Source: Neocallimastix sp. 'constans' | Lineage: Eukaryota | NCBI GenBank assembly: GCA_050613775.1 | Contig: JBODTK010000110.1 | Location: forward strand, 62,001-126,000 | Reading direction: 5' to 3' | DNA length: 64,000 nt | In this document: in pieces, positions 11,062-36,112 of the stretch | How the letters are laid out: the number at the start of each line of letters is the position of its first letter | Numbering within the stretch: position 1 is the first letter of the stretch | Position numbers and translations under genes: made by a program | Notes under the pieces: generated by a model | What the model saw: the letters and a program-made list of their open reading frames with translations, nothing else | The model's database searches: none | Told to the model about the DNA's origin: nothing

Positions 11062-11358
11062 GTTTTATTCATTTTTAAACTTTTAAAAAAATTGAAGTTT
11101 TATTTTTTTATATAAAAATATTTATAAATAATTAAATAAAATATTTCTATATTACTATTTAATAATGTGTAATAATTAAAATATAATAAATAATAAATAA
11201 TATATAATAAATAATAAATAATATATAATAAATAATAAATAATAAATAATAAAAAATAAATAATAATATAATACTAATTAAATAATATTTAATATTTAAT
11301 AATAATTTTAGAATGTTTTGTTTTTTTTGAAATAAGAATGAAAAGTTCTAATTTTTAT

Positions 11359-12142
11359 TGGTATGGTTCATATAATTTTAGGAATATAATAATAATTAAC
11401 ACAAATAATAAAATTACAATAAAAATAATTTTGTTTTAAAATCAATGTTTATTTATTTAAATTTATAAAAGAAAAATAATAATATAATTATTTATTTAAT
11501 AAAAAGAAAGTTATTGATTATATTTTATTTCACTAAAATTACATGTATTTATATTTTTTATCAAATTAAAATTTGTAAAGCCTAACTATTTTTTTAATAA
11601 ACTAATTACTAATTATTTTTATAAATAAAACATTTAAATTGAAATTGAATTATTATTTTAGTTAATAATATTATTGTTATAAATAGTAGTTATATATTAT
11701 TGAATTATTAATTATTTAATAATAGTTTAATACTAATATATATAAAATAAAAATAAAGAGATTATACAGAATATTTTATTGTGGTTTAGTTAAATTTAGT
11801 AATTAAAAATAAATTTAAATTGATAACGAAAATTTTAATAACTAATTAAATAGATTTGATTATTTTCAATATAACATAATACAAAAGAAATATAATATTA
11901 ATATATTAAGTGGGCAAGGACAATATTCTTGGCTAAAGATTTTTAATACATTATAATGGAATCGGATCGATAATTCAAAAAGGAATTATAAGTTAATTAG
12001 TGATTTATTAACTTAAGATTTTTATTTAGTAATATTTGAAGAATATTGGAAAGTTCCAATTATATAGAATAGAATAATCTATAAGGTTAGAATAATTTAT
12101 ATTATTCTAGCACAATTAGTATTATTTGTTCATTCTGTATTA
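11359..12142 (-). repeat. 3' LTR of element A
   Basis: Same length as 17576-18359 and no differences seen by eye; starts TGGTATGG and ends CTGTATTA on + strand. Confidence 0.95.
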
Positions 12143-12165
12143 AGATGCCCCCGCTAAGACTCAAG

Positions 12166-15100
12166 CTAGGTAGAAGCTGAGTTAAACTTGACAATATTTT
12201 TCAAATGAACATTACGATTCATTTGTATATTAGTAGCAGGATCAGCTAAAGTGACTGTATTGAATTGTTTCTTTACCACTTTCATAGGTCCAACAAAGTA
12301 AGGTTCTAATTTAGTTCGATTAAAGTTTCTTACTAGTACTAAATCACCTGGTTTTATTCTTTTAGCTTGATTCATACTGGTCTTTTCTTCTCTCCTAGTA
12401 GCCCAATACTTCGAAGCATTTTTGATATTAGATGCGGCCTCCATTACCCATTGGTAGTGTGATACAAATTTTTCCAGTAGAATTTCGTCAGAAGACTTAT
12501 TTATACCCTTAGTTGGTCTGGCAGCAATGTCAAAAGGTTGTTGGTCCTCCCTTCCATAAACTAATTCAAAACTTGAATGGTTGGTGATTGAGTTTTTAGT
12601 AGTTCTTAAAGCCCAAAGTGCAGATGGTAAAATTTCATCCCATTCTTTGTGTTGTTGTTCTAGTAATCGTAATAATTTTCCAATTTCTTTATTACGATTC
12701 TCAACTAAACCATTGCTTTCAGGATGATATGGAGTGATAAATTTAACATATACATCATATAAATCAAGGAAGATTTTTGTCATATCTGATGTAAATTGTG
12801 TTCCATTATCAGTAGTGATAATTTGAGGTACACCGTGTCGAGCAAATACATTAATTAAAAATTTTATCACATCCTGAGAAGTAACATTTTCAGTGGGCTC
12901 TGCCTCAACCCATTTAGTAAAATAATCAACCACAACGATTATATATTGATTATTATTTCTGGTTTTACTTAGAGGTCCTATAATGTCCAATCCTAAGTGT
13001 GTAAATGGTCCTTCCACTTCAGTTGGTTTATCTTCCGTTGGTTCAGGGTATGGTTGAGATTTATTTAATTGACATTTTTCACATTTACCTATAATTCGCT
13101 TAATGTCATTAACCATATTGTTCCAATAGTAGCTCTTTTTCAAACGTTGGTATGTCTTGTAATAGCCTTCGTGTCCTATACTGTGTGCTTGAAAAATTAA
13201 TTGAAGTTTTTCTTTTGTATCTGTAACTAATTTTCTATAATTATTGCCATCAACAAAGTAGTCCACACCATCAATTGTCGTAAATTTTTCTTCAATAAAT
13301 TCCTTAATGGTTCTTGAAAGCAGGTTTTCATCTTGTTCTTTGATAATTTGTGTTGTTAAGATAACTTTTTCTTTTTCATTTTTCATTCTTGATAAAGCGT
13401 CTGCAACAACATTATTCTTCCCAGCTTCATATCGTAAATCAATTCCTAACATACTGACAGTCAAACACCATCTTGTATGGCGAGAGTTTTGTGGTTCCTT
13501 ATTTTTAAGTAATCCGATTAAGGGTCTATGGTCTGTATATACTATAGTTTGCTTAGGATTTCCCATAATATAAGATTTTAATTTATTAATACAGTAAATT
13601 AGAGCGGCACCTTCTAGATCCGTAATTCCATAATTCTTTTCCGATTTAGATAAACTTCTACTAATATAATGAACCGGATGCTCCTTTCCAGTTTCATCAT
13701 CCTTTTGTAAAAGCACACCGCCTATTCCATCATAGGAAGCATCTGTTCTTATAATAAATTCTCTATCAAATCTAGGAAATCTTAATATTGGGGCATTGAT
13801 TAATCTTTCCTTAAGAATTTTAAAACTTTCTTCTTGTTCCTTTTTCCATTCAAACTTAATACCTTTTCTTAATAGAGTGCAGAGAGGAGCAGTAACTTTT
13901 GCAAAGTCCTTAATAAAATTTCTATAATATCCAATGGCTCCTAAAAATGATCGAAGTTCATGAATGTTAGAGGGAGCCTTCCATTCTTTAATAGCTTCAA
14001 CTTTGTTTTCCAATGGACTTAAACCTTCTGAGGATACTTTATGTCCAAGTACTTCTACTTCAGTTTGCATGAAAGAACACTTTTCGATATTGATTTTTAA
14101 CTTATGTTCCTTGAATATTTCTAAGACTTGTTTAAGATGTTCTAGGTGTTCTTCTTCAGTTCTTGAGTAGATTAAAATATCATCGATAAAGTTATAGACA
14201 CATTTTCCTATTAAGGGAAATAGTATACGGTTCATTTCTCTTTGGAATGTAGCTGGAGCACCTGTTAAACCGAAGGGCATTACCTTGAATTGGTAGTTTC
14301 CGAACTTAGTTGTAAAGGTAGTGATTTCAACACTATCATCATCCATTAATATTTGATGATAACCGGAATAAAGATCTAATGTTGAAAAGATTTTTGCTCC
14401 ATCTAAGCTATCAAAAATTTCCTCAATATTTGGTAAAGAATAAGAATCCTTCTTAGTTGCTTCATTTACTTTCCTATAGTCAATACACAGGCGCCATTTA
14501 CCGTTCTTTTTAGGCACAAGTACTACTGGTGATGACCATTCTGAACATGAAGGTTCAATTAATCGTTTATATATGAGTTTGGTTAATTCTTCTTTTAAGA
14601 TATCTGTTTTTAATTTACTAAGTCGATAAAATTTTTGTTTAATAGGTTTAACTCCTTCCTTAAGAATAATTTTGTGTGGTGATAAATCTGAAGGTGTTAA
14701 TTCTTCAGAAGAAGTTGCAATTATATCAATATATTCTTCAAGTAATTTAGTAATAGCTTCTCTATAATTTGAATTAATTGTACTTTGAAAAACTGTGTCA
14801 TATATATATTTTATGGGTGGTAATCCTTCAATCGTTTTCAATTGTTGCTTAGCTTCTTGGTGATTCAATGCTTTGATCACACATAATAATTTTTCTTCGT
14901 CATCATATTCATTATTAATAGGTGTAATTTCTTCAATTAAACCTTGATCATTAAATCGACAAAGACTATATCTAATTGGATGTATAAATAACTGGTTATC
15001 AATTTGAGTTTTGAGGTTGATTAATATATCATAGAATGGATCCTCCTTGTCTATAATTCTACACGTAACAAGTAGTTCTAGTTCATTAATTTTTACGGGA

Positions 15101-16167
15101 ACTTTGATTAACACATCTTCTGAGTAATCATCATTCATTGTTGCTAAACGTATTCGTCCTGCACTAACTCCTATAGGTTCATACTGATAAGGTAATTTAT
15201 CTAAAAATTGCTTTGTGATAATACTTAAGTTACTACATGAATCTATTAAAGCCTTACCACGAACTCCATCTACTATTACATCAACCATAGCAATATCATC
15301 TTCTTGTGGTTCATGATGTTTACTTTTATATGTATGATCTATATTGTTCGTTATTATTGTAGTAGCACACATATTATCCACTGCACCTGAAATTTTAGTA
15401 TTATTCTTTTCTAATTTAAGTCCTTGTGATACTTGAGACCGTATCTTTGGAGCAACGTCCAATAATTGTCCAAATGTAATATTGCAATTACTGGAGTTTA
15501 AATCTTTGATCACGTCATAACTATCACAATCAGTTTGCATTTGTATTCTTTTTGGAATTCTAGTTGGCATAATTTCAGTTGACTTTTCTGATGATTTTCC
15601 TTGAATTAATTTATTTAAAGTTTGTTTAGAATTATTTCCTTCCTGAGAAGTTTCTTCATTAATAATATTAACAATACTATTTTTATTATTTTCCACAGAA
15701 GTACTAGTACTAGCTCTTTCCTTATCTCTTAGCTCTTTCTCAATCCTCTTTTCTTTCTCTATTCTGGGTTGAGCCATAATCGAAGGATGTAATTGAGTTG
15801 TTGGCTTTTTGACTGGTCGCGATGTTCCCCTTAATTTATTTTCTTTTTGTTTTCGTAAACCTGGAGTAACTATTGGCTTAGGATCATCTCTTAGACTACG
15901 GTGAACCCTCTTTCCTCTTTGGTCACTAGTCTCTTCATCTTTAGGATTTGCCTTTCTCTTTATAACGTTTACTAAGTAATCCAATTCTTTGGAACCATCC
16001 GACTCATCATCAAAATCTTCGTAATAATCCGTAGTAGTACCTTCTTGGAAATCAGCAATTTCTTCATAATCATCATCTTCTTTTAAGTCAACTGTTTTGG
16101 GACGATGGCAGACTGAAGCAATTTTTTTGACGATGGGAGTGCTTCTACTCCCTTTTAGTGGTTTAAA
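12166..16167 (-). CDS. pol: Pol of element A (aspartic protease, RT, RNase H, integrase with GPY/F-like tail), made as Gag-Pol by -1 frameshift
   Basis: ALIDSCSN protease, WRLCIDYRKVN / MPFGL / FIDD RT, TDAS RNase H, H-H-C-C zinc motif and DDE integrase, KLEPYFVGPMKV. The frame stays open from the slippery site at 16161-16167. Confidence 0.95.
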   Translation of the reverse strand, partial: FKPLKGSRSTPIVKKIASVCHRPKTVDLKEDDDYEEIADFQEGTTTDYYEDFDDESDGSKELDYLVNVIKRKANPKDEETSDQRGKRVHRSLRDDPKPIVTPGLRKQKENKLRGTSRPVKKPTTQLHPSIMAQPRIEKEKRIEKELRDKERASTSTSVENNKNSIVNIINEETSQEGNNSKQTLNKLIQGKSSEKSTEIMPTRIPKRIQMQTDCDSYDVIKDLNSSNCNITFGQLLDVAPKIRSQVSQGLKLEKNNTKISGAVDNMCATTIITNNIDHTYKSKHHEPQEDDIAMVDVIVDGVRGKALIDSCSNLSIITKQFLDKLPYQYEPIGVSAGRIRLATMNDDYSEDVLIKVPVKINELELLVTCRIIDKEDPFYDILINLKTQIDNQLFIHPIRYSLCRFNDQGLIEEITPINNEYDDEEKLLCVIKALNHQEAKQQLKTIEGLPPIKYIYDTVFQSTINSNYREAITKLLEEYIDIIATSSEELTPSDLSPHKIILKEGVKPIKQKFYRLSKLKTDILKEELTKLIYKRLIEPSCSEWSSPVVLVPKKNGKWRLCIDYRKVNEATKKDSYSLPNIEEIFDSLDGAKIFSTLDLYSGYHQILMDDDSVEITTFTTKFGNYQFKVMPFGLTGAPATFQREMNRILFPLIGKCVYNFIDDILIYSRTEEEHLEHLKQVLEIFKEHKLKINIEKCSFMQTEVEVLGHKVSSEGLSPLENKVEAIKEWKAPSNIHELRSFLGAIGYYRNFIKDFAKVTAPLCTLLRKGIKFEWKKEQEESFKILKERLINAPILRFPRFDREFIIRTDASYDGIGGVLLQKDDETGKEHPVHYISRSLSKSEKNYGITDLEGAALIYCINKLKSYIMGNPKQTIVYTDHRPLIGLLKNKEPQNSRHTRWCLTVSMLGIDLRYEAGKNNVVADALSRMKNEKEKVILTTQIIKEQDENLLSRTIKEFIEEKFTTIDGVDYFVDGNNYRKLVTDTKEKLQLIFQAHSIGHEGYYKTYQRLKKSYYWNNMVNDIKRIIGKCEKCQLNKSQPYPEPTEDKPTEVEGPFTHLGLDIIGPLSKTRNNNQYIIVVVDYFTKWVEAEPTENVTSQDVIKFLINVFARHGVPQIITTDNGTQFTSDMTKIFLDLYDVYVKFITPYHPESNGLVENRNKEIGKLLRLLEQQHKEWDEILPSALWALRTTKNSITNHSSFELVYGREDQQPFDIAARPTKGINKSSDEILLEKFVSHYQWVMEAASNIKNASKYWATRREEKTSMNQAKRIKPGDLVLVRNFNRTKLEPYFVGPMKVVKKQFNTVTLADPATNIQMNRNVHLKNIVKFNSAST
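16115..16167 (-). promoter_or_regulatory. -1 ribosomal frameshift signal of element A: U UUA AAC + 8-nt spacer + H-type pseudoknot
   Basis: Sense: UUUAAAC cacuaaaa GGGAGU a GAAGC ACUCCC aucgucaaaaaaauu GCUUC. pol is in the -1 frame relative to gag. Confidence 0.85.
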
Positions 16168-17072
16168 TAATTTTCATAAAACTTCTTGCGGTTATTTTCC
16201 AATATAGAATTTAATTTAGGACAGTTTCGTTTGGTATGTCCTTCATTGCTACAAAACCAGCAAGTACTAATTTTCATTTCTTTCATCTTGTTAGTGATAT
16301 TTTCTATAGATACATTTTTGTGGGTTTTTGGTTTGTTAAAATCATTTGAAATGTTCTTATTAAAATTACTTTTAGAGTTAAGGAGATTGTAATGAGTCTT
16401 ATCATAATATTCAGTACTATTTTTAATAGATAAACGATCAACTTTTTCGGCTATAGCGAACGCTTTGGTAATAGAAATATGGTCTTTAAGCATAACCTTT
16501 CTCCATGCGTCAGGATTATTGGTTAAGGAATCTGCATAATCTAAAACACTAATTTTTCTTCTTCTCTTTTTATCCAATTTATGGTACAAAGATCTATAAC
16601 GGACATTAAAATCTTTAACTTTCTCGTTCTTCTTTATTTTCATGGAACGTAATTCTCGTAACAAATTGGTTTGATCTTCTTTAAGTCCATAGAAAGTCTT
16701 CAGATGATTTATGATTTCATCAAGGCTTGGGTAGGTGCTAGTAGATTCACTTTCTTCATCATCTTCTCCTTCACTATCGCTATCGAAATCAGAATCTTCA
16801 TCTTCAGTAAGGTCATTTCCATCTTCTAGTTCTTGGATAATTTCTCTTGGTTCTCCAAAAGCCGTTAATATACAAGCAGTAAAAATAGTTTCAGGATCCT
16901 TGATATGTTGGTATTTTATCCATGCCTTTAACTCATTTGCCCAGGAGTTGATGTCAAGGTTTTGTTTAGTAAGCTTTTCAAAATCTTTTAATTCTTTCTT
17001 TAATTCTCTGAAGCTAAGCTTACTTTCTGGAGTACTCTCTGTTGGAGTACTGGAAGTACTGGATGTTCTCAT
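16155..17072 (-). CDS. gag: Gag of element A with acidic insert and C-terminal CCHC zinc knuckle
   Basis: 305-aa ORF; CWFCSNEGHTKRNC; clearly homologous to gag of element B. Confidence 0.92.
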   Translation of the reverse strand: MRTSSTSSTPTESTPESKLSFRELKKELKDFEKLTKQNLDINSWANELKAWIKYQHIKDPETIFTACILTAFGEPREIIQELEDGNDLTEDEDSDFDSDSEGEDDEESESTSTYPSLDEIINHLKTFYGLKEDQTNLLRELRSMKIKKNEKVKDFNVRYRSLYHKLDKKRRRKISVLDYADSLTNNPDAWRKVMLKDHISITKAFAIAEKVDRLSIKNSTEYYDKTHYNLLNSKSNFNKNISNDFNKPKTHKNVSIENITNKMKEMKISTCWFCSNEGHTKRNCPKLNSILENNRKKFYENYLNH

Positions 17073-17223
17073 AAAATAAAATTTATTGTATCTATAGAAT
17101 GCTAAACCTCGTAATGTATAAATTGTTATAAAAAAGTAAAAATAAAAAAAATTAAAAAAAATAATCTTTTAACTAATAAAATTATTAATTATTTATTATT
17201 AATCACTTATTAAATTATAATAA

Positions 17224-17389
17224 TCGTGCAATCTGATAGTACACACTATCTGACGTGCAGCTTACCTCTTGAAAGGTGTCATGCCACGCGTGTGCCACGG
17301 TTACTATTTTCAATATAAAAAATAGCAGTCCAGAGCCTACTAGCCCAATTACTATGTAGGATAAACTTAACCCGGAAATCTATGCACGA
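17224..17389 (-). ncRNA. Conserved structured cis-RNA in the 5' leader of element A
   Basis: GC-richer island highly similar to 24691-24850 in element B, with compensatory changes in several stems. Confidence 0.7.
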
Positions 17390-17549
17390 ATATTAGTTTA
17401 ATTTAATAATAATTAATATTTTTAACAATTAATAATAATTAGTTAAAAATATAAAAATTGTTTTTTAAAAAAAAAATTTTTTGTTTTATTAGAAAAATTA
17501 TTTATTAATATTATAATTTTATCCCCAATGTATTAATTTATTATTATAT

Positions 17550-17567
17550 TCCCCGATATCTCCACCA
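17550..17567 (-). promoter_or_regulatory. Primer-binding site complementary to the 3' 18 nt of tRNA-Ala (element A)
   Basis: TGGTGGAGATATCGGGGA is the complement of UCCCCGAUAUCUCCACCA; the UCUCC-A-CCA acceptor end with U70 is typical of tRNA-Ala. Confidence 0.85.
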
Positions 17568-17575
17568 ATTTTTCA

Positions 17576-18359
17576 TGGTATGGTTCATATAATTTTAGGA
17601 ATATAATAATAATTAACACAAATAATAAAATTACAATAAAAATAATTTTGTTTTAAAATCAATGTTTATTTATTTAAATTTATAAAAGAAAAATAATAAT
17701 ATAATTATTTATTTAATAAAAAGAAAGTTATTGATTATATTTTATTTCACTAAAATTACATGTATTTATATTTTTTATCAAATTAAAATTTGTAAAGCCT
17801 AACTATTTTTTTAATAAACTAATTACTAATTATTTTTATAAATAAAACATTTAAATTGAAATTGAATTATTATTTTAGTTAATAATATTATTGTTATAAA
17901 TAGTAGTTATATATTATTGAATTATTAATTATTTAATAATAGTTTAATACTAATATATATAAAATAAAAATAAAGAGATTATACAGAATATTTTATTGTG
18001 GTTTAGTTAAATTTAGTAATTAAAAATAAATTTAAATTGATAACGAAAATTTTAATAACTAATTAAATAGATTTGATTATTTTCAATATAACATAATACA
18101 AAAGAAATATAATATTAATATATTAAGTGGGCAAGGACAATATTCTTGGCTAAAGATTTTTAATACATTATAATGGAATCGGATCGATAATTCAAAAAGG
18201 AATTATAAGTTAATTAGTGATTTATTAACTTAAGATTTTTATTTAGTAATATTTGAAGAATATTGGAAAGTTCCAATTATATAGAATAGAATAATCTATA
18301 AGGTTAGAATAATTTATATTATTCTAGCACAATTAGTATTATTTGTTCATTCTGTATTA
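17576..18359 (-). repeat. 5' LTR of element A
   Basis: Direct repeat of 11359-12142; adjacent to the PBS. Confidence 0.95.
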
Positions 18360-18361
18360 TT

Positions 18362-18702
18362 TGTTAAGGTTTTAGAGAATTAAATAAAAATAAAGTAAGA
18401 AACACAAATTTTATTTATTTATTTATTATTTTTATTTATAAATTTATTTGATTTTATTTTATTTTATTTTATTTGATTTGATTTTATTTTATTTTATGAT
18501 ATTTAAAAATTAGTAGCAAAATTTACAACTATTTATACTTTTTTTTCAAGGCATAAAAGTTGTTCTTGCCACTAAATTACATTTTATTATTATTTTTCTT
18601 TTTATATATAAAAACTATTAAATTTAAATTGATTTTTATAATCAATTATATAAAATTTAATTATAACAATATAAATAAAATACATTTATAATATTAATAA
18701 AA

Positions 18703-18741
<39 letters not shown>

Positions 18742-19229
18742 CTATCTAAAATATTACTAATAAGAATTTATTTAATTGGCTAAAATTTTTATTACACTCT
18801 GTTAAAATATTCAAATAAAAATAAAAATACTATTCTAATATAAAGGTTTTTAATAAAATAAAATATTTTTCAATATAAAATAAAACATTTCGATATAAAA
18901 TTTTATAATAAAAGTTAAAATATAATATATAAATTTTTAATTATCAATATATAAAAATATTATTAATACAAATTTTCATTATTAATATAAAAATAAAAAA
19001 AATAAGATTTATTATTAATATTGTTAATATAAGTTTTAAATATATAAAAATATTACTATTAATATAAGATTTAATATAAAAATTATAAAGTTTAATATAA
19101 TTTTTGATCTAATTTTTAATCTTTGAATTTAAAAATTTATTAAAGTACAAAAATAATAATGTACACATAATGTATTAGAAATAAATCGTAGATTTAATTA
19201 AGAATGCATTATTTAGTACATTCTTATCA
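18362..19229 (-). repeat. 3' LTR of element B
   Basis: TGTTAAGG...CTTATCA, same length as 25549-26416 and no differences seen by eye. Confidence 0.95.
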
Positions 19230-19247
19230 AGATGCCCCGACGAAGAC

Positions 19248-22200
19248 TCAAGCTTCTCTGTAAGCGGAGTTAAACTTTACTAAATTTTTAAAATGAACAT
19301 TCCTATCGAGTTGTTTCCCAGTTTTCTGATCGATTAAGGTTGCCGTGTTGAATTGAATTTTTAAAATTTTAAATGGTCCATTGTAATATGGTTCTAGCTT
19401 AGTGCGGCTAAAGTTTCTAACAAGAACAAGATCACCAGCTTTTAATTCTTTTCCTTTTTTCATACTTATTTGTTCTTCTCGTCTTGTTGCCCAATACTTG
19501 TTAGCATTCTTCACATTTTCGCATGCTTCTCTAGTCCATTGATAATGACGAACAAATTTTTCCATTAAAATTTCATCATACGATTTACCTGCATTTTCAA
19601 TTGTTCTTATGGCTATATCATAAGGCTGTTGGTCTTCTCTTCCATATACTAATTCAAAACTAGAATGTCCGGTAGCTGTGTTTTTGGTAGTTCGAAGTGC
19701 CCATAAAGCAGAAGGTAAAACTTCATCCCAATCTTGATTTTTCCTTCCTAATAAACGAAGTAATTTTCCAATTTCTTTATTTCGGTTTTCAGTGAGACCA
19801 TTGGATTCAGGGTGATAGGTAGCTATGAATTTTACATAAACATCATAAAGATCAAGAAAGATTTTAGTCATATCAGAAGTGAATTGGACTCCATTATCTG
19901 TAGTAATAACTTGAGGCACACCATGTCTTGCAAAAACGTTTATTAAAAATTTAATTATATCAGAGGAAGTTATGTTTTCAGTGGGTTCGGCTTCAACCCA
20001 TTTGGTAAAGTAATCAACAGTTACTATAATATATTGATTATTATTTCTTGTTTTTGGTAACGGTCCTATAATATCTAATCCTAAATGCACAAAGGGACCC
20101 TCCACTTTAGTTGGATGGTTTTCGGTTGGTTCTGGATATGGTTGAGGACGATTTAACTGGCATTTTTCACAATTACTAACAATTCTTTTGATATCTTTAA
20201 TCATATGATTCCAATAAAAGTTTTTCTTAAGTCTTTGATATGTTTTGTAATATCCTTCGTGGCCAATATTATGAGCTTCTAAAATTAATTTAAACCTTTC
20301 ATTTTCGTCCGTTATTAATTTTCTATAATTTCCATTGTCGATAAAATAATCTTCACCATCAATAACAGTAAACTTTTCATTAATAAATTCCTTTATAACT
20401 TTAGATAATAATTCTTCATTATTTCCATTAGTAATTTTTGTTAATAATATCTTTCTCTCTTCCTTACTTTTCATTCTTGAAAGAGCATCAGCTAACACAT
20501 TCTTTTTGCCTGATTCATATTTTATATTAATTCCGAGCATACTAGCGGTTAGACACCATCTTGTTTGCCTTGCATTCAAAGGTTCTTTATTCTTAAATAA
20601 ACCAACTAATGGTTTATGATCTGTGTAAATAGTTGTAGGTAATGGATTTCCTTCAATATAAGATTTAAATTTAGTCATACAGTAAAACAAAGCGGTTCCT
20701 TCTAAATCGGTAATACCATAATTCTTTTCAGCTTTCTTTAAACTTCTACTTATAAAGTGTATTGGATGCTCCTTACCGGTTTCTTCTTCTTTTTGTAAAA
20801 GAACTCCACCAATTCCATTATACGAAGCATCAGTTCTAATGATAAAAGGTTTGTCAAATGACGGAAATTTTAGAATAGGTGCATTGATTAATTTTTCTTT
20901 TAGGAGTTCAAAGCTTTCTTGTTGTTCTTTATTCCATTCATATTTGGTATTCTTTTTCAATAATTTACATAAAGGTGAGGTAATTTGAGCATATTTAGGA
21001 ATAAAATCACGATAATATCCCACTGCTCCTAAAAATGATCTTAATTCATGAAGTGATGAAGGGGCTTCCCACTTCTTAATAGCTGTTATCTTACTTTCCA
21101 TGGGACTTAATCCTTTAGTAGTAAGTTTGTGACCTAATACATCAACTTCAGTTTGAAGAAAATGGCACTTTTCAATATTAATTTTTAACTTGTTTTCTTT
21201 AAATACTTCTAATACTTGTTTAATATGAATTAAATGTTCTTCGATACTTTTTGAATAGATCAAAACATCATCAATAAATACATAAACAAATTCACCAATA
21301 AAAGGGAATAAAATTTTATTCATTTCTCTTTGGAAGGTTGAGGGAGCTCCAGTAAGTCCAAAAGGCATAACCTTAAATTGATAATTTCCAAACTTAGTAG
21401 TGAAAGTGGTTACTTCAACGCTTTCTTCATCCATTAAGATTTGGTGAAAACCAGAAAATAAATCAAGAGTTGTAAATATTTTAGCTCCTCCGAGACTATC
21501 AAAAATTTCATCTATATATGGAACTGAATAAGAATCTTTTTCTGTCATATCATTGACTTTTCGGTAGTCAATGCACAAGCGCCACTTTCCATTGTGTTTT
21601 AGAATGAGTACTACTGGAGATGACCATTCTGAACAGGATGGTTCTATCAATCCTTTCTTAATAAGCTTTGTAAGTTCTTCTTTTAAGATATCTGATTTTA
21701 ATTTAGTTAACCTATAACTTCTTAATTTTACTGGCTTTGCATTTGCTTTCAAACGGATCTTATGTGGTGAAAGTTTAGAAGGAGTTAGTTCTTCTGTTGA
21801 AGTGGCAACTATGTCAATCATTTCTTTGAGAATTTTAATAATTTGTTCTTTATAATCTTTATTTAAGGTACTTAAAAATTCATCACTCTCAATAAATTCC
21901 ATTGGAGTTAATTCCTTTATAATTTCCTTTTCATTATTCGTTTCTTTAACTTTTCTAATAGTGCAAATTATACTTTCTTCATCATAATATTGATTATTTA
22001 TTTTAGCTATTTCTTCGTATTCACTTTCTGACAAAAGTTTACATAGACTGTTTAAGGTTGGATGAATAAATAAACAATGATCGATTTGAGTTTTAAAGTT
22101 TATTAACATATCATAAAATGAGTCTTCTTTCTCAATAATTCTAAAGTCCGCATTAAATTCATAATTATTAATTTTTACTGGTAATCGAACAATAATTCCT

Positions 22201-23258
22201 TCCGAGTATTCTTCATCTTGTGTTGCTAGTTGGATTCTTCCACGACTTTTTCCAACTGTTTCATATTCACCAGGTAATTTATCAAAATACTGCTTAGTAA
22301 CGATGCTTAGGTTACTACAAGAATCAATTAAAAGTTTTCCTAGTACTCCGTCAACACTTGCATCAACCATTGCTAAGTCTTCTTCGGCTACTTCATTACT
22401 TTTACTTATGTAGCTATGGTCATAGTTATTTACTAATAAAGTTCGTGCTATTACATTGTCTACAGTTCCAATTATTTTAGACTTTTCTAACTTTAAACCT
22501 TGAGTTAATTGTGAACGAATTTTAGGACATGCATTCAAGAGTTGACCTATCGTAATACTGGATTTAAGATTATTTAAATCATCCATAATATTGTAAGGTT
22601 CTTTATTATTCATCATTTTGATATTCCTTTTTACTAATTGAGTATTTCCATTATTAGTTTCCTTAGTTTTTGTTGAAATTAATTTTTCCAAAGTATTAGT
22701 TTTATTTTGTTGATTATCTTTATTCATTTCTAGATCTTCTATTTCATTATCGATTACAAGTATATCTTCAGATTCAACTTTTTCCTTTCCTTTTGATGAA
22801 TAATTGTTGTTTTCTTCTTTACTTTCTCTTACTCTTGTCATATTTCTTAATTCCTTTTCTTTTTGTTTTTCTTTGTTAATATTTGGTTGAGTTAAAATTG
22901 AAGGAAGTATTTGATTTTTATAAACTTTATTTGGTTTATTATGCAGCTCATTTTCTTTCTTCTTTCTTAAAGCAGGAGTTGCAAAAGGACGTGGATTATC
23001 TTTTAAACTTTTATGTACTTTCTTGGAATTATTTTCTTCTTTTTCGCTGTTATTATCATTCATTTTTCTTTTTACAGCATTTATAATGATATCATCCTCA
23101 CTTTCAGTTGTGTCACTAAAATCAGATTCTTCAGATTCTTCGTTAAAGGAATTATTATCAATTGGAGTATTCTTAGTAAAAGTATTATTTTGTAAATTAT
23201 TTAATGAAGCTATTGTTTTGTCATTGGGAGTGCTTCTGCTCCCATTTAGAAGTTTAAA
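19248..23258 (-). CDS. pol: Pol of element B (PR-RT-RH-IN, GPF motif, no chromodomain), expressed by -1 frameshift
   Basis: LLIDSCSN, WRLCIDYRKVN, FIDD, TDAS, HHCC, DDE, KLEPYYNGPFKI. The frame is open from the slippery site at 23252-23258 to the annotated ATG at 23063. Confidence 0.95.
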   Translation of the reverse strand, partial: FKLLNGSRSTPNDKTIASLNNLQNNTFTKNTPIDNNSFNEESEESDFSDTTESEDDIIINAVKRKMNDNNSEKEENNSKKVHKSLKDNPRPFATPALRKKKENELHNKPNKVYKNQILPSILTQPNINKEKQKEKELRNMTRVRESKEENNNYSSKGKEKVESEDILVIDNEIEDLEMNKDNQQNKTNTLEKLISTKTKETNNGNTQLVKRNIKMMNNKEPYNIMDDLNNLKSSITIGQLLNACPKIRSQLTQGLKLEKSKIIGTVDNVIARTLLVNNYDHSYISKSNEVAEEDLAMVDASVDGVLGKLLIDSCSNLSIVTKQYFDKLPGEYETVGKSRGRIQLATQDEEYSEGIIVRLPVKINNYEFNADFRIIEKEDSFYDMLINFKTQIDHCLFIHPTLNSLCKLLSESEYEEIAKINNQYYDEESIICTIRKVKETNNEKEIIKELTPMEFIESDEFLSTLNKDYKEQIIKILKEMIDIVATSTEELTPSKLSPHKIRLKANAKPVKLRSYRLTKLKSDILKEELTKLIKKGLIEPSCSEWSSPVVLILKHNGKWRLCIDYRKVNDMTEKDSYSVPYIDEIFDSLGGAKIFTTLDLFSGFHQILMDEESVEVTTFTTKFGNYQFKVMPFGLTGAPSTFQREMNKILFPFIGEFVYVFIDDVLIYSKSIEEHLIHIKQVLEVFKENKLKINIEKCHFLQTEVDVLGHKLTTKGLSPMESKITAIKKWEAPSSLHELRSFLGAVGYYRDFIPKYAQITSPLCKLLKKNTKYEWNKEQQESFELLKEKLINAPILKFPSFDKPFIIRTDASYNGIGGVLLQKEEETGKEHPIHFISRSLKKAEKNYGITDLEGTALFYCMTKFKSYIEGNPLPTTIYTDHKPLVGLFKNKEPLNARQTRWCLTASMLGINIKYESGKKNVLADALSRMKSKEERKILLTKITNGNNEELLSKVIKEFINEKFTVIDGEDYFIDNGNYRKLITDENERFKLILEAHNIGHEGYYKTYQRLKKNFYWNHMIKDIKRIVSNCEKCQLNRPQPYPEPTENHPTKVEGPFVHLGLDIIGPLPKTRNNNQYIIVTVDYFTKWVEAEPTENITSSDIIKFLINVFARHGVPQVITTDNGVQFTSDMTKIFLDLYDVYVKFIATYHPESNGLTENRNKEIGKLLRLLGRKNQDWDEVLPSALWALRTTKNTATGHSSFELVYGREDQQPYDIAIRTIENAGKSYDEILMEKFVRHYQWTREACENVKNANKYWATRREEQISMKKGKELKAGDLVLVRNFSRTKLEPYYNGPFKILKIQFNTATLIDQKTGKQLDRNVHFKNLVKFNSAYREA
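23206..23258 (-). promoter_or_regulatory. -1 frameshift signal of element B: U UUA AAC + 7-nt spacer + pseudoknot
   Basis: Sense: UUUAAAC uucuaaa UGGGAG ca GAAGC a CUCCCA augacaaaacaaua GCUUC. Confidence 0.85.
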
Positions 23259-24157
23259 GACTTTTTGGAATATATTTCTTTTTTATTTTTTTCCATAATC
23301 TTATTTAATTGAGGGCAATAGTATGAGTAATGACCTTCTTCCTTACAGAAGAAGCAAGTTTTAACGGATAAATTTCTCATTTTCTGGGTTGATTCTTCTA
23401 TAATATCTTGAGGTTTCGGTTTATTATTTGTTTGATTTGTTTGGAAAGTTTCGTTTCTTCTTTTAGGATAAAGTCTTGAAGTAGTACTGTTTTGATTATT
23501 TTGATTATGTTGGGAATTATTAACATTATAGGTATTAATATTATTGTTCCTTACAGAAAGTCTATCTACTTTCTCGGCAATTTTGAAAGCTTTATCCATA
23601 CTTATATCATCTTTAAGGGATAATTTCTTCCAGGCTTCATAATTATTTTGAATAGAATCAATATAATCTAGTACACCAATTCGCTTTCTTCTCTTTTTAT
23701 CAAGTTTAGTGTACAAAGTTCTATATCTTACATTAAAGTCTTTAATCTTTTCGTTTCTTTTAATTCGCATTGCACGAAGTTCTTTAAGAAGTAAATTTTG
23801 GTCTTCTTTAATACCGTAAAAATTTTCAAGACTTGAAATAATTTTTTCAAGGGAAGGAAATTTAATATCATCATCAACATTTTCTTCTTCATCATCATCT
23901 TCTTCTTCATCTGATGAATCATCCCTTTCATCATCACTATCTTCTCCCAAATCTTCAATAACGCGTTGTACTTCACCAGAGCTGGTAAGTAAACAAGCAT
24001 TAAATATTGTTTCTGGATCTGTAATACCTTGTATCTTGATCCAAAGTTTTAATTCAGTAGCCCAGGACTTAATATCTAAATTGTCCTTGCTAAGTTTCAC
24101 AATATCTCTTAATTCTTTTTTCAATTCTTTAAAGCTCAAAGTTGTTTCCTTGGACAT
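23246..24157 (-). CDS. gag: Gag of element B with acidic insert and CCHC knuckle
   Basis: CFFCKEEGHYSYYC. Probable start MSKETTLSFKELKKEL (ATG 24157) aligns with LSFRELKKEL of element A gag. Confidence 0.9.
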   Translation of the reverse strand: MSKETTLSFKELKKELRDIVKLSKDNLDIKSWATELKLWIKIQGITDPETIFNACLLTSSGEVQRVIEDLGEDSDDERDDSSDEEEDDDEEENVDDDIKFPSLEKIISSLENFYGIKEDQNLLLKELRAMRIKRNEKIKDFNVRYRTLYTKLDKKRRKRIGVLDYIDSIQNNYEAWKKLSLKDDISMDKAFKIAEKVDRLSVRNNNINTYNVNNSQHNQNNQNSTTSRLYPKRRNETFQTNQTNNKPKPQDIIEESTQKMRNLSVKTCFFCKEEGHYSYYCPQLNKIMEKNKKEIYSKKSLNF

Positions 24158-24332
24158 TTTGTTTAAATATTTCTTGTTGTATATTAATGAGGTGATTAAA
24201 TAAGAATAAATTTGGAAATACAACTTTAAAAATATAATTTAATAGGTAATTTAATATCGAATCAATTTTTAAAACAATATATTTTAGTAACTTTTGAAAA
24301 TAATAATTTTATTTGCTTTCTTTAGTAGATAT

Positions 24333-24520
24333 AAGCTCGAAATCCTTATCGACAACTTAGTAGAAATTATAAAGCACGAGGTTCTTTTCGACTACTTTAT
24401 TAAGAATAATTTTTAAGTTCGAAATCTTTATCGACAACTCAATAGAATAATTTAAGTTCGAAATCTTTATCGACAACTCAATAGAATATTTTTCAAGCTC
24501 GAAACCTTTATCGACCACTT
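24333..24520 (-). repeat. Five ~40-bp tandem hairpin repeats in the leader of element B
   Basis: AAG(C/T)TCGAAATC(T/C)TTATCGACAACT-like units start at 24333, 24372 (diverged), 24415, 24454 and 24495. Confidence 0.9.
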
Positions 24521-24690
24521 GAATTTTGTAATTTAGTATATTTGTAGTAATAAATTTAGAAGCAAAGTTTTATTTATTATTTTCACCTTTCAAAAATTTT
24601 TCTTTTTAAACGATAAATATTGTATTGTTATAGCTAATAAAATTATTAATTAATTATAATTATTAAATACAAAAAAATAATCTTTATTGT

Positions 24691-24850
24691 CGTACAATCT
24701 GATAGTACACACTGTCTGACGTGCAGCTTACCTAATGGTGTCATGCCACGCGTGTGCCACGATTACTATATTCAATATAAAATATAGCAGTTCAGAGCCT
24801 ACTAGCCCAATTACTATGTAGGATAAACTTAATCCGATAATCTATGTACG
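24691..24850 (-). ncRNA. Conserved structured cis-RNA in the 5' leader of element B
   Basis: Homologue of 17224-17389. Confidence 0.7.
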
Positions 24851-25524
24851 GAATAAAAAAAAATTTTAAAAGTATTCAATAATATTTTTATTAACTAATA
24901 AAAATTAACTAAAAACACAATATTTTCAAGTAAATTAAGATTCTTTTACAGGAATTATTAAACAAATAAAGTATCAGTAATAAAAAAAAATAAAAAAAAT
25001 TTAAATGGCGAAGTTAGCCAAAGTCTGATACTTTATATAATAAAGTGCCTTATAACTAGCACAAAGAAAAGTAAAAAAAAATATATATAAAAAAAACAAT
25101 CTTACGCCTTCGGTGACGTAAGCTCCTTATTCGCCAGTGCTTGGAAAGTACCCGCACCTTCGTGTGTTGAAACGTTGAAGGCTGAACTATTATTACCGGG
25201 TCGGTAACCAAATACCTTCGTCTACTTTCCAATTAATCTCCAAATTAACTACTATTCAATAACCTACTATGAATAGAGTTAATTTGTTGCTATCTGAGAA
25301 TACACTGTGTATGAGCTCTATCCGCTCCTTGTTATAATTTTACAAAATTTGTTTTTTTTTTTTTTTTGAATCTTAATTTTACTTATTTAAAAAAAAATTT
25401 TTTTATATATATATCAAACAAGCGCCATAGGTTAATCAAAGGATTAACGACTTACTTGTTTATCAATATAAAATAAAAAAAAATTAAAAAAAATCTATGT
25501 TATTTACTATTATTTCTATTTAAT

Positions 25525-25542
25525 TCCCCGATATCTCCACCA
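25525..25542 (-). promoter_or_regulatory. tRNA-Ala primer-binding site (element B)
   Basis: Identical 18-mer to the PBS of element A. Confidence 0.85.
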
Positions 25543-25548
25543 TATAAA

Positions 25549-25889
25549 TGTTAAGGTTTTAGAGAATTAAATAAAAATAAAGTAAGAAACACAAATTTTA
25601 TTTATTTATTTATTATTTTTATTTATAAATTTATTTGATTTTATTTTATTTTATTTTATTTGATTTGATTTTATTTTATTTTATGATATTTAAAAATTAG
25701 TAGCAAAATTTACAACTATTTATACTTTTTTTTCAAGGCATAAAAGTTGTTCTTGCCACTAAATTACATTTTATTATTATTTTTCTTTTTATATATAAAA
25801 ACTATTAAATTTAAATTGATTTTTATAATCAATTATATAAAATTTAATTATAACAATATAAATAAAATACATTTATAATATTAATAAAA

Positions 25890-25928
<39 letters not shown>

Positions 25929-26416
25929 CTATCTAAAATATTACTAATAAGAATTTATTTAATTGGCTAAAATTTTTATTACACTCTGTTAAAATATTCA
26001 AATAAAAATAAAAATACTATTCTAATATAAAGGTTTTTAATAAAATAAAATATTTTTCAATATAAAATAAAACATTTCGATATAAAATTTTATAATAAAA
26101 GTTAAAATATAATATATAAATTTTTAATTATCAATATATAAAAATATTATTAATACAAATTTTCATTATTAATATAAAAATAAAAAAAATAAGATTTATT
26201 ATTAATATTGTTAATATAAGTTTTAAATATATAAAAATATTACTATTAATATAAGATTTAATATAAAAATTATAAAGTTTAATATAATTTTTGATCTAAT
26301 TTTTAATCTTTGAATTTAAAAATTTATTAAAGTACAAAAATAATAATGTACACATAATGTATTAGAAATAAATCGTAGATTTAATTAAGAATGCATTATT
26401 TAGTACATTCTTATCA
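25549..26416 (-). repeat. 5' LTR of element B
   Basis: Direct repeat of 18362-19229. Confidence 0.95.
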
Positions 26417-26432
26417 TATTATGTATAATAAA

Positions 26433-26864
26433 GCCATGTTGGTCCAGTCGGTTAGGACGATACAGGTCACTGTAGAGGGCGGGGTTCGAATCCTCGGCAT
26501 GGCACCAAATAATCGGATGAGGTTTCTATCCTGGGATATCATGAGACCACACGTGATGTCCATAAGGCTTTCCCTCAGATGATTATTTCACCCAACCCTG
26601 ATACTACGCTTTGAATTGAAGCATAGACCTTGATGATTGTAAAATTTCCAATCGCCAATGATTAATGGTTCCGTTCTGATGCTCGTGGTCATTAGAGATA
26701 TATGTAGGAACGTTAGGAATGCATCTCCGGGCAGTGTGTAACGACGATTGAGAGCGGCGAAGCTGATACAGTATGCCAATAACTCATCACCTTACAGTTA
26801 ATTAATAACTGTATGGCCATATGGGAGATGGGTACCCATATGTGCAAGTCTATGTTTTTTTTTT
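26433..26864 (+). mobile_element. tRNA-derived SINE, copy 1 (T-rich tail); its left TSD is split by the two LTR elements
   Basis: tRNA-like head 26433-26507 with A box TGGTCCAGTCGG, B box GGTTCGAATCC and encoded CCA. Nearly identical inverted copy at 35668-36112. Right TSD TTTTTATGTATAATAAA at 26865-26881 matches 11352-11358 + 26423-26432. Confidence 0.92.
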
Positions 26865-35014: not shown

Positions 35015-35667
35015 GTTGTTAATTATAAAATTATAATTTTATTTAAAAAAAAAATAAAATATTATATAATTTCGAAGTAGTGTTGAAAATAAATTTTTTT
35101 TAAAAAAATTATTATTTACTATTTGATTTTTTTCCACTTTATGTCATAGTTATGATTGGTTAAAATAATTATAATAAATTATTAATTAAAAAAAATTTTT
35201 TTAATAAATAATTTTTTCATTTATTATTATAAAAATTGTATAATACTTTTTTTTTTTTTTTTTTATAGAATAAACTTTATTTAATAATATTTATTAAAAA
35301 AAAATATATGAAAATTATACTAATTTACCATAATTTTATAGTACTTAAACATAATCCATACATCATATTACCATATCTTATCCAGTTTTATATTAATGTC
35401 ATTTTAATAACTATTATTTCATATTTTAACTAATATTTGATTATATTATATTTTTAAAGGTTAATAGAAACTTTTTTATAAAAAAAGAATTATAATAAAT
35501 TTAAAATAGATAAGTAAATTTTTTTTAATAATTGAAAAATGTTTTTAAAAGTATTTTTTAAAAAATTGTACATTATAGCATTGATAAATAACTAATACTT
35601 TTTGATATTTTAAATAATATAATTGATGTTAATACATTAGTAAAAATTGTTGAATACTTTCTTCATA

Positions 35668-36112
35668 AAACATAGACTTGCACATATGGGTACCCATCTC
35701 CCATATGGCCATACAGTTATTAATTAACTGTAAGGTGATGAGTTATTGGCATACTGTATCAGCTTCGCCGCTCTCAATCGTCGTTACACACTGCCCGGAG
35801 ATGCATTCCTAACGTTCCTACATATATCTCTAATGACCACGAGCATCAGAACGGAACCATTAACTCCTCCCTAGTGGGTGTAATCATTGGCGATTGGAAA
35901 TTTTACAATCATCAAGGTCTATGCTTCAATTCAAAGCGTAGTATCAGGGTTGGGTGAAATAATCATCTGAGGGAAAGCCTTATGGACATCACGTGTGGTC
36001 TCATGATATCCCAGGATAGAAACCTCATCCGATTATTTGGTGCCATGCCGAGGATTCGAACCCCGCCCTCTACAGTGACCTGTATCGTCCTAACCGACTG
36101 GACCAACATGGC
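35668..36112 (-). mobile_element. tRNA-derived SINE, copy 2, with 16-bp TSD GAATACTTTCTTCATA
   Basis: Reverse complement of 26433-26857 plus 20 extra bp (35864-35883). TSD at 35652-35667 and 36113-36128. Confidence 0.95.

Follow-up and report, generated by a model that had tools for sequence, protein, structure and literature searches.

The 5' leaders of two neighbouring LTR retrotransposons in the window (the whole stretch of 64,000 nucleotides analysed here, with a G+C content of 18.8%) carry a motif that, judging from the comparison of its copies, is a real and previously undescribed structured RNA with a new fold, its putative function being that of an element acting in cis in the leader of an LTR retroelement. 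The first-pass annotation had noticed both islands, and alignment confirmed their positions (17224-17389 and 24690-24851) as well as their near-identity (92% over 162 columns). The two elements, denoted here as A (11359-18359) and B (18362-26416), are intact, are arranged in tandem on the minus strand, and can be recognized as Ty3/gypsy LTR retrotransposons, since LTRs, a primer-binding site (PBS), a PPT, a knuckle-bearing gag and a pol with the order RT-RH-IN are all present. Their relevant features are the following:

17224..17389, minus strand: structured RNA motif with two three-way junctions, element A copy, 166 nt
24690..24851, minus strand: structured RNA motif, element B copy, 162 nt
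17576..18359, minus strand: 5' LTR of A (TA...CA); partner 3' LTR at 11359-12142, pair 99.7% identical
25549..26416, minus strand: 5' LTR of B (TG...CA); partner 3' LTR at 18362-19229, pair 100% identical
17550..17567, minus strand: PBS of A, 18 nt
25525..25542, minus strand: PBS of B
16155..17072, minus strand: gag of A, 305 aa, with a C-terminal CCHC knuckle; its AUG lies 151 nt behind the motif
12166..16173, minus strand: pol of A (RT, RNase H and integrase, in Ty3/gypsy order), overlapping gag
23246..24157, minus strand: gag of B, 303 aa; its AUG lies 532 nt behind the motif
19248..23282, minus strand: pol of B (RT, RNase H and integrase, in Ty3/gypsy order)

The gag and pol genes occupy separate frames in both elements. 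In A, a -1 frameshift is suggested by UUUAAAC plus a hairpin (16167-16161), and the gag-pol junction is conserved in both elements (UUUAAAC and then a hairpin, 16114-16174 and 23205-23265, minus strand) as a likely -1 frameshift signal, in contrast to Ty1 and Ty3, where the shift is +1. The LTRs of A start with TA, not with TG (12139-12142 and 18356-18359, minus strand), and the gap between the LTR end and the PBS is 6-8 nt in A and B. The PBS of A, which from its identity elements we take to be of the tRNA-Ala type, has its first 17-18 nt in common with all six elements considered in this work. The two elements, annotated as otherwise diverged, proved to be related: they share the same 18-nt PBS and are 55% (gag) and 64% (pol) identical at the protein level. 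A search with the gag protein yielded 74 matches, the named relatives coming from Orpinomyces, Piromyces and Neocallimastix, and feces metagenomes are among the sources of this DNA, so that an anaerobic gut fungus is the likely host. As annotated, the LTRs of A and B do not align (score 92, versus a shuffled mean of 93.5). The parallel claim for the remainder of the leaders does not hold on the gag side of the motif, where the similarity extends for about 35 nt (2 of 1000 shuffles); on the other flank, the similarity is reached by 50 of 1000 shuffles.

The motif is found in one copy per element, never in the LTRs, and in all six elements it lies between the PBS and gag on the sense strand, which in A and B is the minus strand. 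Eight of the 56 model pairs of copy A are G-U, and these would turn into A-C on the plus strand. Folding energy alone did not decide the strand, because the MFE z-scores versus shuffles are similar for the minus (-2.5 for copy A, -2.8 for copy B) and the plus strands (-2.5 and -2.4, respectively). Copy A is placed 160 nt behind the PBS and copy B 673 nt; the PBS-to-motif distance is 102-226 nt in four of the six elements and 670-673 nt in the related pair formed by B and its relative L003, in which another module intervenes. The distance from the motif to the gag AUG spans 151-1374 nt, and the leader behind the PBS measures 477-1765 nt. In the leader of A (477 nt), the motif is the sole GC-rich stretch and the sole structure. 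Long-range pairing between the motif and the rest of the element was no better than in shuffles in all four elements so compared.

The relatives were obtained by searching a gag alignment against metagenome contigs, of which 23 of 64 parts were covered, and at least 10 loci were found. Four of them (L001-L004) are full-length gag relatives (50-54% identity), and in all four the PBS is shared and the motif is present. The other six (L005-L010) are weak partial matches with a GC content of 38-43% that have neither such a PBS nor the motif, and they were left out of the relatives. A key observation came from a structure model (R1) trained only on A, B, L003 and L002, with L001 and L004 withheld. 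This model matched L004 over its full length (47.3 bits, E 6.9e-11) and also L001 (30.2 bits, E 3.6e-6), whereas a sequence-only model built on these rows recovered a portion of L004 (35.4 bits) and, even at E up to 10, did not detect L001; therefore, it is structure, not sequence, that links L001 to the rest. Indeed, pairwise identities among the six motif copies drop to 47%, and L001 and L004 retain the fold at 47-65% identity. In these two relatives (L001 1425-1690 and L004 360-615), the motif is extended to about 260 nt, with a longer basal stem and shared flanking AGUA and GGAAA strings that possibly represent a loop-E-type element. Beyond the fungal elements, viral contigs gave no match to gag, the gag alignment, RT or an exact 25-nt string, and blastn against phages and plasmids gave none either. 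A loose three-part pattern picked up 32 prokaryote and 7 viral loci, which were discarded as chance matches because none of the 39 matches R1 (E<=1) or R2 (E<=5); the pattern itself misses L001, and its negatives are no proof of absence.

The model contains two three-way junctions, both backed by covariation: P1/PA/P5 at the top and PA/P2-P3/P4 as the second one. In the coordinates of copy A, its parts are as follows:

17225..17388, minus strand: basal stem P1, 17388-17383 with 17230-17225; six of six pairs covary
17380-17378 with 17237-17235, minus strand: second segment of P1, G-N-U/A-N-C
17296..17374, minus strand: left domain; PA (17374-17369 with 17302-17296) closes a three-way junction
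17367-17327, minus strand: P2/P3 of the left domain, with an invariant CUC internal loop
17326-17303, minus strand: hairpin P4 of the left domain
17241..17295, minus strand: right arm P5; P5a (17295-17290 with 17246-17241), then P5b
within 17241..17295, minus strand: internal loop of the right arm P5, with invariant A and AG; the arm also has a bulge
17277-17264, minus strand: hairpin P6 of the right arm

In the six-row alignment, which was fitted to the model, leans towards it and amounts to about four independent sequences, 96.1% of the 334 cells pair and 32 of the 56 pairs change on both sides (11.8 in shuffled alignments, 0/500; 3-6 in slid controls), with at least one such pair in each of the nine helices. 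The four-row alignment that had not been fitted contained 10 two-sided pairs out of 56 (3.7 when shuffled, 0/500). From the six rows before fitting, RNAalifold recovered P2, P3, P4, P5 and P6, but not P1 and PA, and from the fitted rows it produced nearly the same structure as the model, with a covariation term of -9.8 kcal/mol. The proposal of a covarying structured RNA, made on two copies, thereby gained a support that two copies could not provide (six rows and the search with withheld copies), and the closing stem, the GCUAU stem and the ACC/GGU hairpin hold in all six rows. The CCUAC hairpin also holds in the six rows but, although annotated as invariant, is not so across the wider family, since four of its nine pairs covary and its loop varies. 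Likewise, the GCACAC/GUGUGU pairing, considered as a possible pseudoknot, proved to be a real helix (five of six pairs covary and 100% of the cells are paired) but a nested one, at the base of P5. The CCGGG/UCUGG helix fared worse: none of its five pairs is two-sided (versus the commonest pair), the outer pair is broken in two of the six rows, and 474 of 500 shuffles pair equally well. Its bases fit instead two other helices, AGUUUA/UGGACU and the previously missed GGUU/AACC, in each of which two of six pairs covary. Nevertheless, its three-pair core can form in all rows and corresponds to the MFE in A, so an alternative conformer is possible; for copy A, the model structure has -42.1 kcal/mol, compared to -50.9 kcal/mol for the MFE. 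Contig variants on copy A provide further evidence: 14 fall at paired sites and 12 of these keep the pair, eight as four two-sided changes with a listed partner and four on their own, whereas the variant at 17306 breaks a pair and that at 17385 has no listed partner change, although B carries it.

Sixteen unpaired columns are invariant in the six rows, 13 of which are located in junctions, bulges and internal loops. These 13, out of 32 junction or internal-loop columns, compare with 3 out of 20 hairpin-loop columns (Fisher p 0.07). The invariant bases include the U in J1/A, CUC, A and AG, and ACU, while the hairpin loops drift, and these invariant bases, we infer, would come together in a tertiary core recognised by its shape. 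There are two invariant CU sites, and the invariant AG is able to pair with one or the other; no pseudoknot of at least three pairs between unpaired model columns holds in all six rows.

Neither the window copies nor those of L001-L004 match a known Rfam family. In the window, Rfam 15 gave no match at the gathering score and, in E-value mode, one chance match around copy A (E 1.7) and one away from copy B (E 4.3); L001-L004 gave none in this mode. Core strings of ribozymes and riboswitches were also compared, one or two short strings each and by exact match, so that variants can be missed. The hammerhead CUGANGA was absent from the six rows on either strand and its GAAA occurred in one sense-strand row out of six; the hairpin, HDV-like, twister, glmS, group I core and TPP riboswitch strings occurred in none of the six sense-strand rows, and that of the pistol ribozyme in one. 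A K-turn, an HCV IIId-like loop, a branch point and a group I core were considered and rejected by eye and by a six-row string scan. Two screens for fungal RNA motifs (PMC5640933, PMC8216456) do not mention transposons, Neocallimastix, Piromyces or chytrids in their main texts, and no description of the motif was found in the openly accessible literature on retrotransposons or RNA of anaerobic fungi, or on structured RNAs and ribozymes of retrotransposons.

The identity of the motif does not follow gag distances, being 92% between A and B and 53% between A and L001. A gag tree (57 rows, quick method) places A together with L001 and L002 (SH-aLRT 97) and separates it from B and L003, and A differs from B at 143 of 237 four-fold pol sites. 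The similarity of the A and B motifs probably reflects an exchange of the module between families; AU tests with six taxa reject neither the motif-like nor the gag-like tree (p-AU 0.07-0.83 for the motif and 0.055-0.80 for gag), so the notion of exchange rests on distances, not on topology. Recent recombination, which had been weighed in the first-pass annotation against a conserved RNA, probably explains in part the near-identity of the window copies, but not the covariation of the distant ones, and this deeper covariation shows, on comparative grounds, long-term selection for the fold.

The leaders look modular in their sequence, and the surroundings of the elements contain an additional repeat:

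25040..25335, minus strand: second structured module, in the leader of B, unrelated to the motif; also in L003 at 495-790
26433..26858, plus strand: tRNA-headed SINE-like repeat of about 430 nt; second copy at 35667-36112, minus strand

The second module has z-scores of about -3.4 and -5.4 and a core of about 100 nt that is almost invariant between B and L003; in these two rows, 9 of 103 predicted pairs display two-sided changes. Its GCGAA string brings HDV-like ribozymes to mind, but no convincing HDV fold could be fitted by eye. Further GC-rich folded islands, with A/U runs between them, are found in L001 (1855-2165 and 2315-2500) and L004 (855-1030), with z-scores from -2.5 to -3.8. These other modules are not homologous to the motif, nor to each other, except for that of B with L003; the same leaders hold further unrecognised modules. 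Short imperfect repeat arrays precede gag in the window (24330-24520, minus strand), L003 (1285-1490), L004 (1165-1285) and L002 (1290-1430), and are absent from A; in B, L003 and L004 they form small hairpins with purine-rich loops, which are candidate nucleocapsid sites. The SINE-like repeat has an encoded CCA, a T-rich tail and target duplications of 12-15 bp, with an 18-nt insertion in the second copy, and has no Rfam match. The 5' LTR of B ends 16 bp before its tRNA-type head (26417-26433), and the 4-bp target duplications (11355-11358 and 18358-18361) indicate that A inserted first, 14 bp before the head, and B later, 2 bp away. Similarly, the start of L001 lies about 12 bp away from a divergent tRNA-like head that has A and B boxes and is truncated by the contig end (L001 1-75). 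From these insertion sites, A/B-type elements appear to target Pol III genes; no description of Pol III-targeted integration in anaerobic fungi was found in the openly accessible literature.

Regarding function, the best reading by position is that the motif acts as a Gag-recognition and packaging platform, a prediction that we hold with slightly less than even confidence. It derives from the position of the motif, its single copy, its being the sole structure in the leader of A and the presence of a knuckle-bearing Gag. Retroviral packaging signals (Psi) lie behind the PBS, as the motif does, and the traits of Psi/DIS-type elements (sense strand, PBS-gag interval, single copy, outside the LTRs) are found in all six elements. 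In Ty3, the NC, with one CCHC finger, is reported to be needed for packaging, which depends on UTR or POL sequence (PMC4974528). In Ty1 RNA, the 5' pseudoknot is described as a preferred Gag site (PMC6844567), and yet it is dispensable for packaging (PMC6844567, PMC4974528).

Briefly, Gag would recognise its own genomic RNA at the motif and would switch it from translation to packaging. Ribosomes probably scan the whole leader, given the avoidance of AUGs before and after the motif, and would have to melt the fold; Gag, bound via its CCHC knuckle, would stabilise the fold and slow translation, and the RNA would thereby be committed to the particle. There are 4 AUGs between the PBS and the motif, versus 19.8 expected, and 7 between the motif and gag, versus 45.6, the control values being 31 versus 39.8 in LTR stretches and 279 versus 293 in host stretches. 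The upstream depletion comes mostly from B and L003 (2 versus 13.7; 2 versus 6.1 in the other four elements), and CAT, the antisense control, is likewise scarce behind the motif (27 versus 43). This pattern fits whole-leader scanning and is unfavourable to both an IRES and an obligatory cut. The dimerisation signal that had been suggested is weakened in its kissing-loop form. Dimerisation of the retroviral kissing-loop type is described as using a conserved palindrome (PMC6844567), and no palindrome is common to the six copies (CACGCGUG occurs in three of the six rows, inside a stem), so the classic start of a kissing-loop dimer is missing. What counts against the packaging platform is that the motif seems to have moved between Gag lineages that are only 55% identical, and this apparent portability would be more expected of a self-contained or host-read element than of one adapted to its own Gag. 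Among raw RNA reads (X24, 19% read), none fell on the motif; metatranscriptome contigs (X10), which carry no strand or end information, cover it unspliced.

The portability of the motif between Gag lineages would suit an export or stability element read by the host (similar to the musD MTE or to a CTE), whose basal stalk would present the branched head to a fungal factor, a reading that we consider unlikely. Its stalk-and-head shape, with the extended stalk and the further shared basal part of L001 and L004, agrees with this idea, and the LTR element musD is reported to use such structured RNA with long-range contacts (PMC5767303). However, the MTE is described as needing an 8-nt kissing contact and a pseudoknot (PMC5767303), and none was found here among the model columns, where loop-loop pairing amounts to 2-3 invariant pairs and shows no covariation. 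In addition, no intron is evident in the elements, so a special export route would meet no clear need.

A bolder conjecture, which we regard as decidedly unlikely, is that the motif represents a new ribozyme class or a ligand-gated switch with a VS-like double junction, lodged in a portable cassette swapped between families and choosing between PBS-bearing genome and coding RNA, the leaders being arrays of such undescribed modules. The two stacked three-way junctions and the internal loop with an A opposite AG resemble the VS ribozyme; of the features of the latter, the pair of three-way junctions with a helix in common is present in the model, but for the kissing between the substrate loop and stem-loop V no helix of at least three pairs between unpaired model columns holds in all six rows, where the invariant AG/CU contacts comprise two pairs.

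An undescribed ribozyme whose cut in the leader would set the PBS-bearing genomic RNA apart from the coding RNA could draw on this resemblance, on the invariant junction bases combined with free loops, and on the invariant AG, whose pairing with either CU site would be a possible docking contact. The X10 contigs cover the motif and the upstream leader and almost none of gag, but a coverage hole is no proof. The reading is improbable: none of the core strings of hammerhead, hairpin, HDV, twister, pistol, glmS or group I is common to the six copies, cleavage behind the PBS would, without tight regulation, ruin the template of reverse transcription, the avoidance of upstream AUGs suggests that the uncut leader is translated, and the likeness to VS lacks the covarying kissing contact.

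The long, structured leaders and the scarcity of AUGs from the motif to gag would also accommodate an IRES, as initially proposed, or a translation enhancer for gag. This claim was indirectly weakened by the fact that AUGs are depleted upstream of the motif too, by the variable distance to the gag AUG and by the lack of a pseudoknot beside the start codon, and we deem it quite improbable. Very improbable is a ligand-sensing or splice-controlling switch, based on a GGR/UCU alternative or on a G|GURAG-like site in P6 that refolding would expose or hide. The GGR/UCU pairing, incompatible with PA and P2, can form in each of the six rows, the alternative helix is the one present in the MFE of copy A, and a GG(U/C)RAG string is found in five of the six rows. 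However, the alternative helix shows no covariation; the change from GU to GC in L002 is accompanied by a matching one in the helix partner and is thus explained by pairing; a branch-point string occurs in one of the six rows; contigs from RNA libraries cross the site unspliced, with no joint listed there; and no Rfam riboswitch matches. Barely credible, finally, is a non-functional passenger, that is, a piece copied from one family to another so recently that the likeness is due to time and not to selection, because, despite the 92% identity of A and B amid divergent four-fold pol sites and some shared flank, the idea is largely refuted by the fold kept in L001 and L004, by the match of L001 to the structure model and not to the sequence-only one, and by the 12 of 14 paired-site variants that preserve pairing, either by themselves or together with a listed change in the partner.

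The preferred reading, a packaging platform, concerns sites that are imprecisely defined even in Ty1 and Ty3, for both packaging and Gag binding, according to PMC4974528. A discrete, GC-rich and covarying module in an AU-rich leader provides an object with natural compensatory variants for tests of binding, packaging and cleavage; should it prove catalytic, it would represent a new class of ribozyme within an LTR leader.

Among known systems, the VS ribozyme shares with the motif a fungal context linked to reverse transcriptase (PMC6765202). Unlike VS, which belongs to a mitochondrial satellite, the motif resides in a nuclear LTR element, has no Rfam match, no covarying loop-loop contact and, in A, B, L002 and L003, no conserved substrate hairpin on its 5' side. 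The musD MTE, RTE, CTE and RRE are also branched RNAs on a stalk in LTR retroelements (PMC5767303), to which the motif is likened by shape and not by sequence; in contrast to them, it is found in a fungal 5' leader and a long kissing contact or pseudoknot was not detected. Retroviral Psi/DIS, the Ty1 5' pseudoknot and the Ty3 UTR determinants likewise lie on the sense strand near the PBS, upstream of or at gag (PMC4974528, PMC6844567), and, as in those systems, the element encodes a Gag with a CCHC knuckle. The motif differs from them in lacking a common palindrome and a pseudoknot, in its apparent exchange between families and in being a discrete module, with covariation like that of riboswitches, embedded in a long AU-rich leader. 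As for the elements themselves, they resemble the Pol III-targeted Ty3/gypsy members Ty3, Tj1, Tca8 and DGLT-A in the RT-RH-IN order and in insertion 12-16 bp before a tRNA-type head, distances of 6-33 bp being listed for Tca8 and DGLT-A (PMC5911963). They depart from these four in their host, likely an anaerobic gut fungus, and in their 4-bp target duplications, a likely -1 frameshift and a long modular leader, together with a PBS that we take to be of the tRNA-Ala type.
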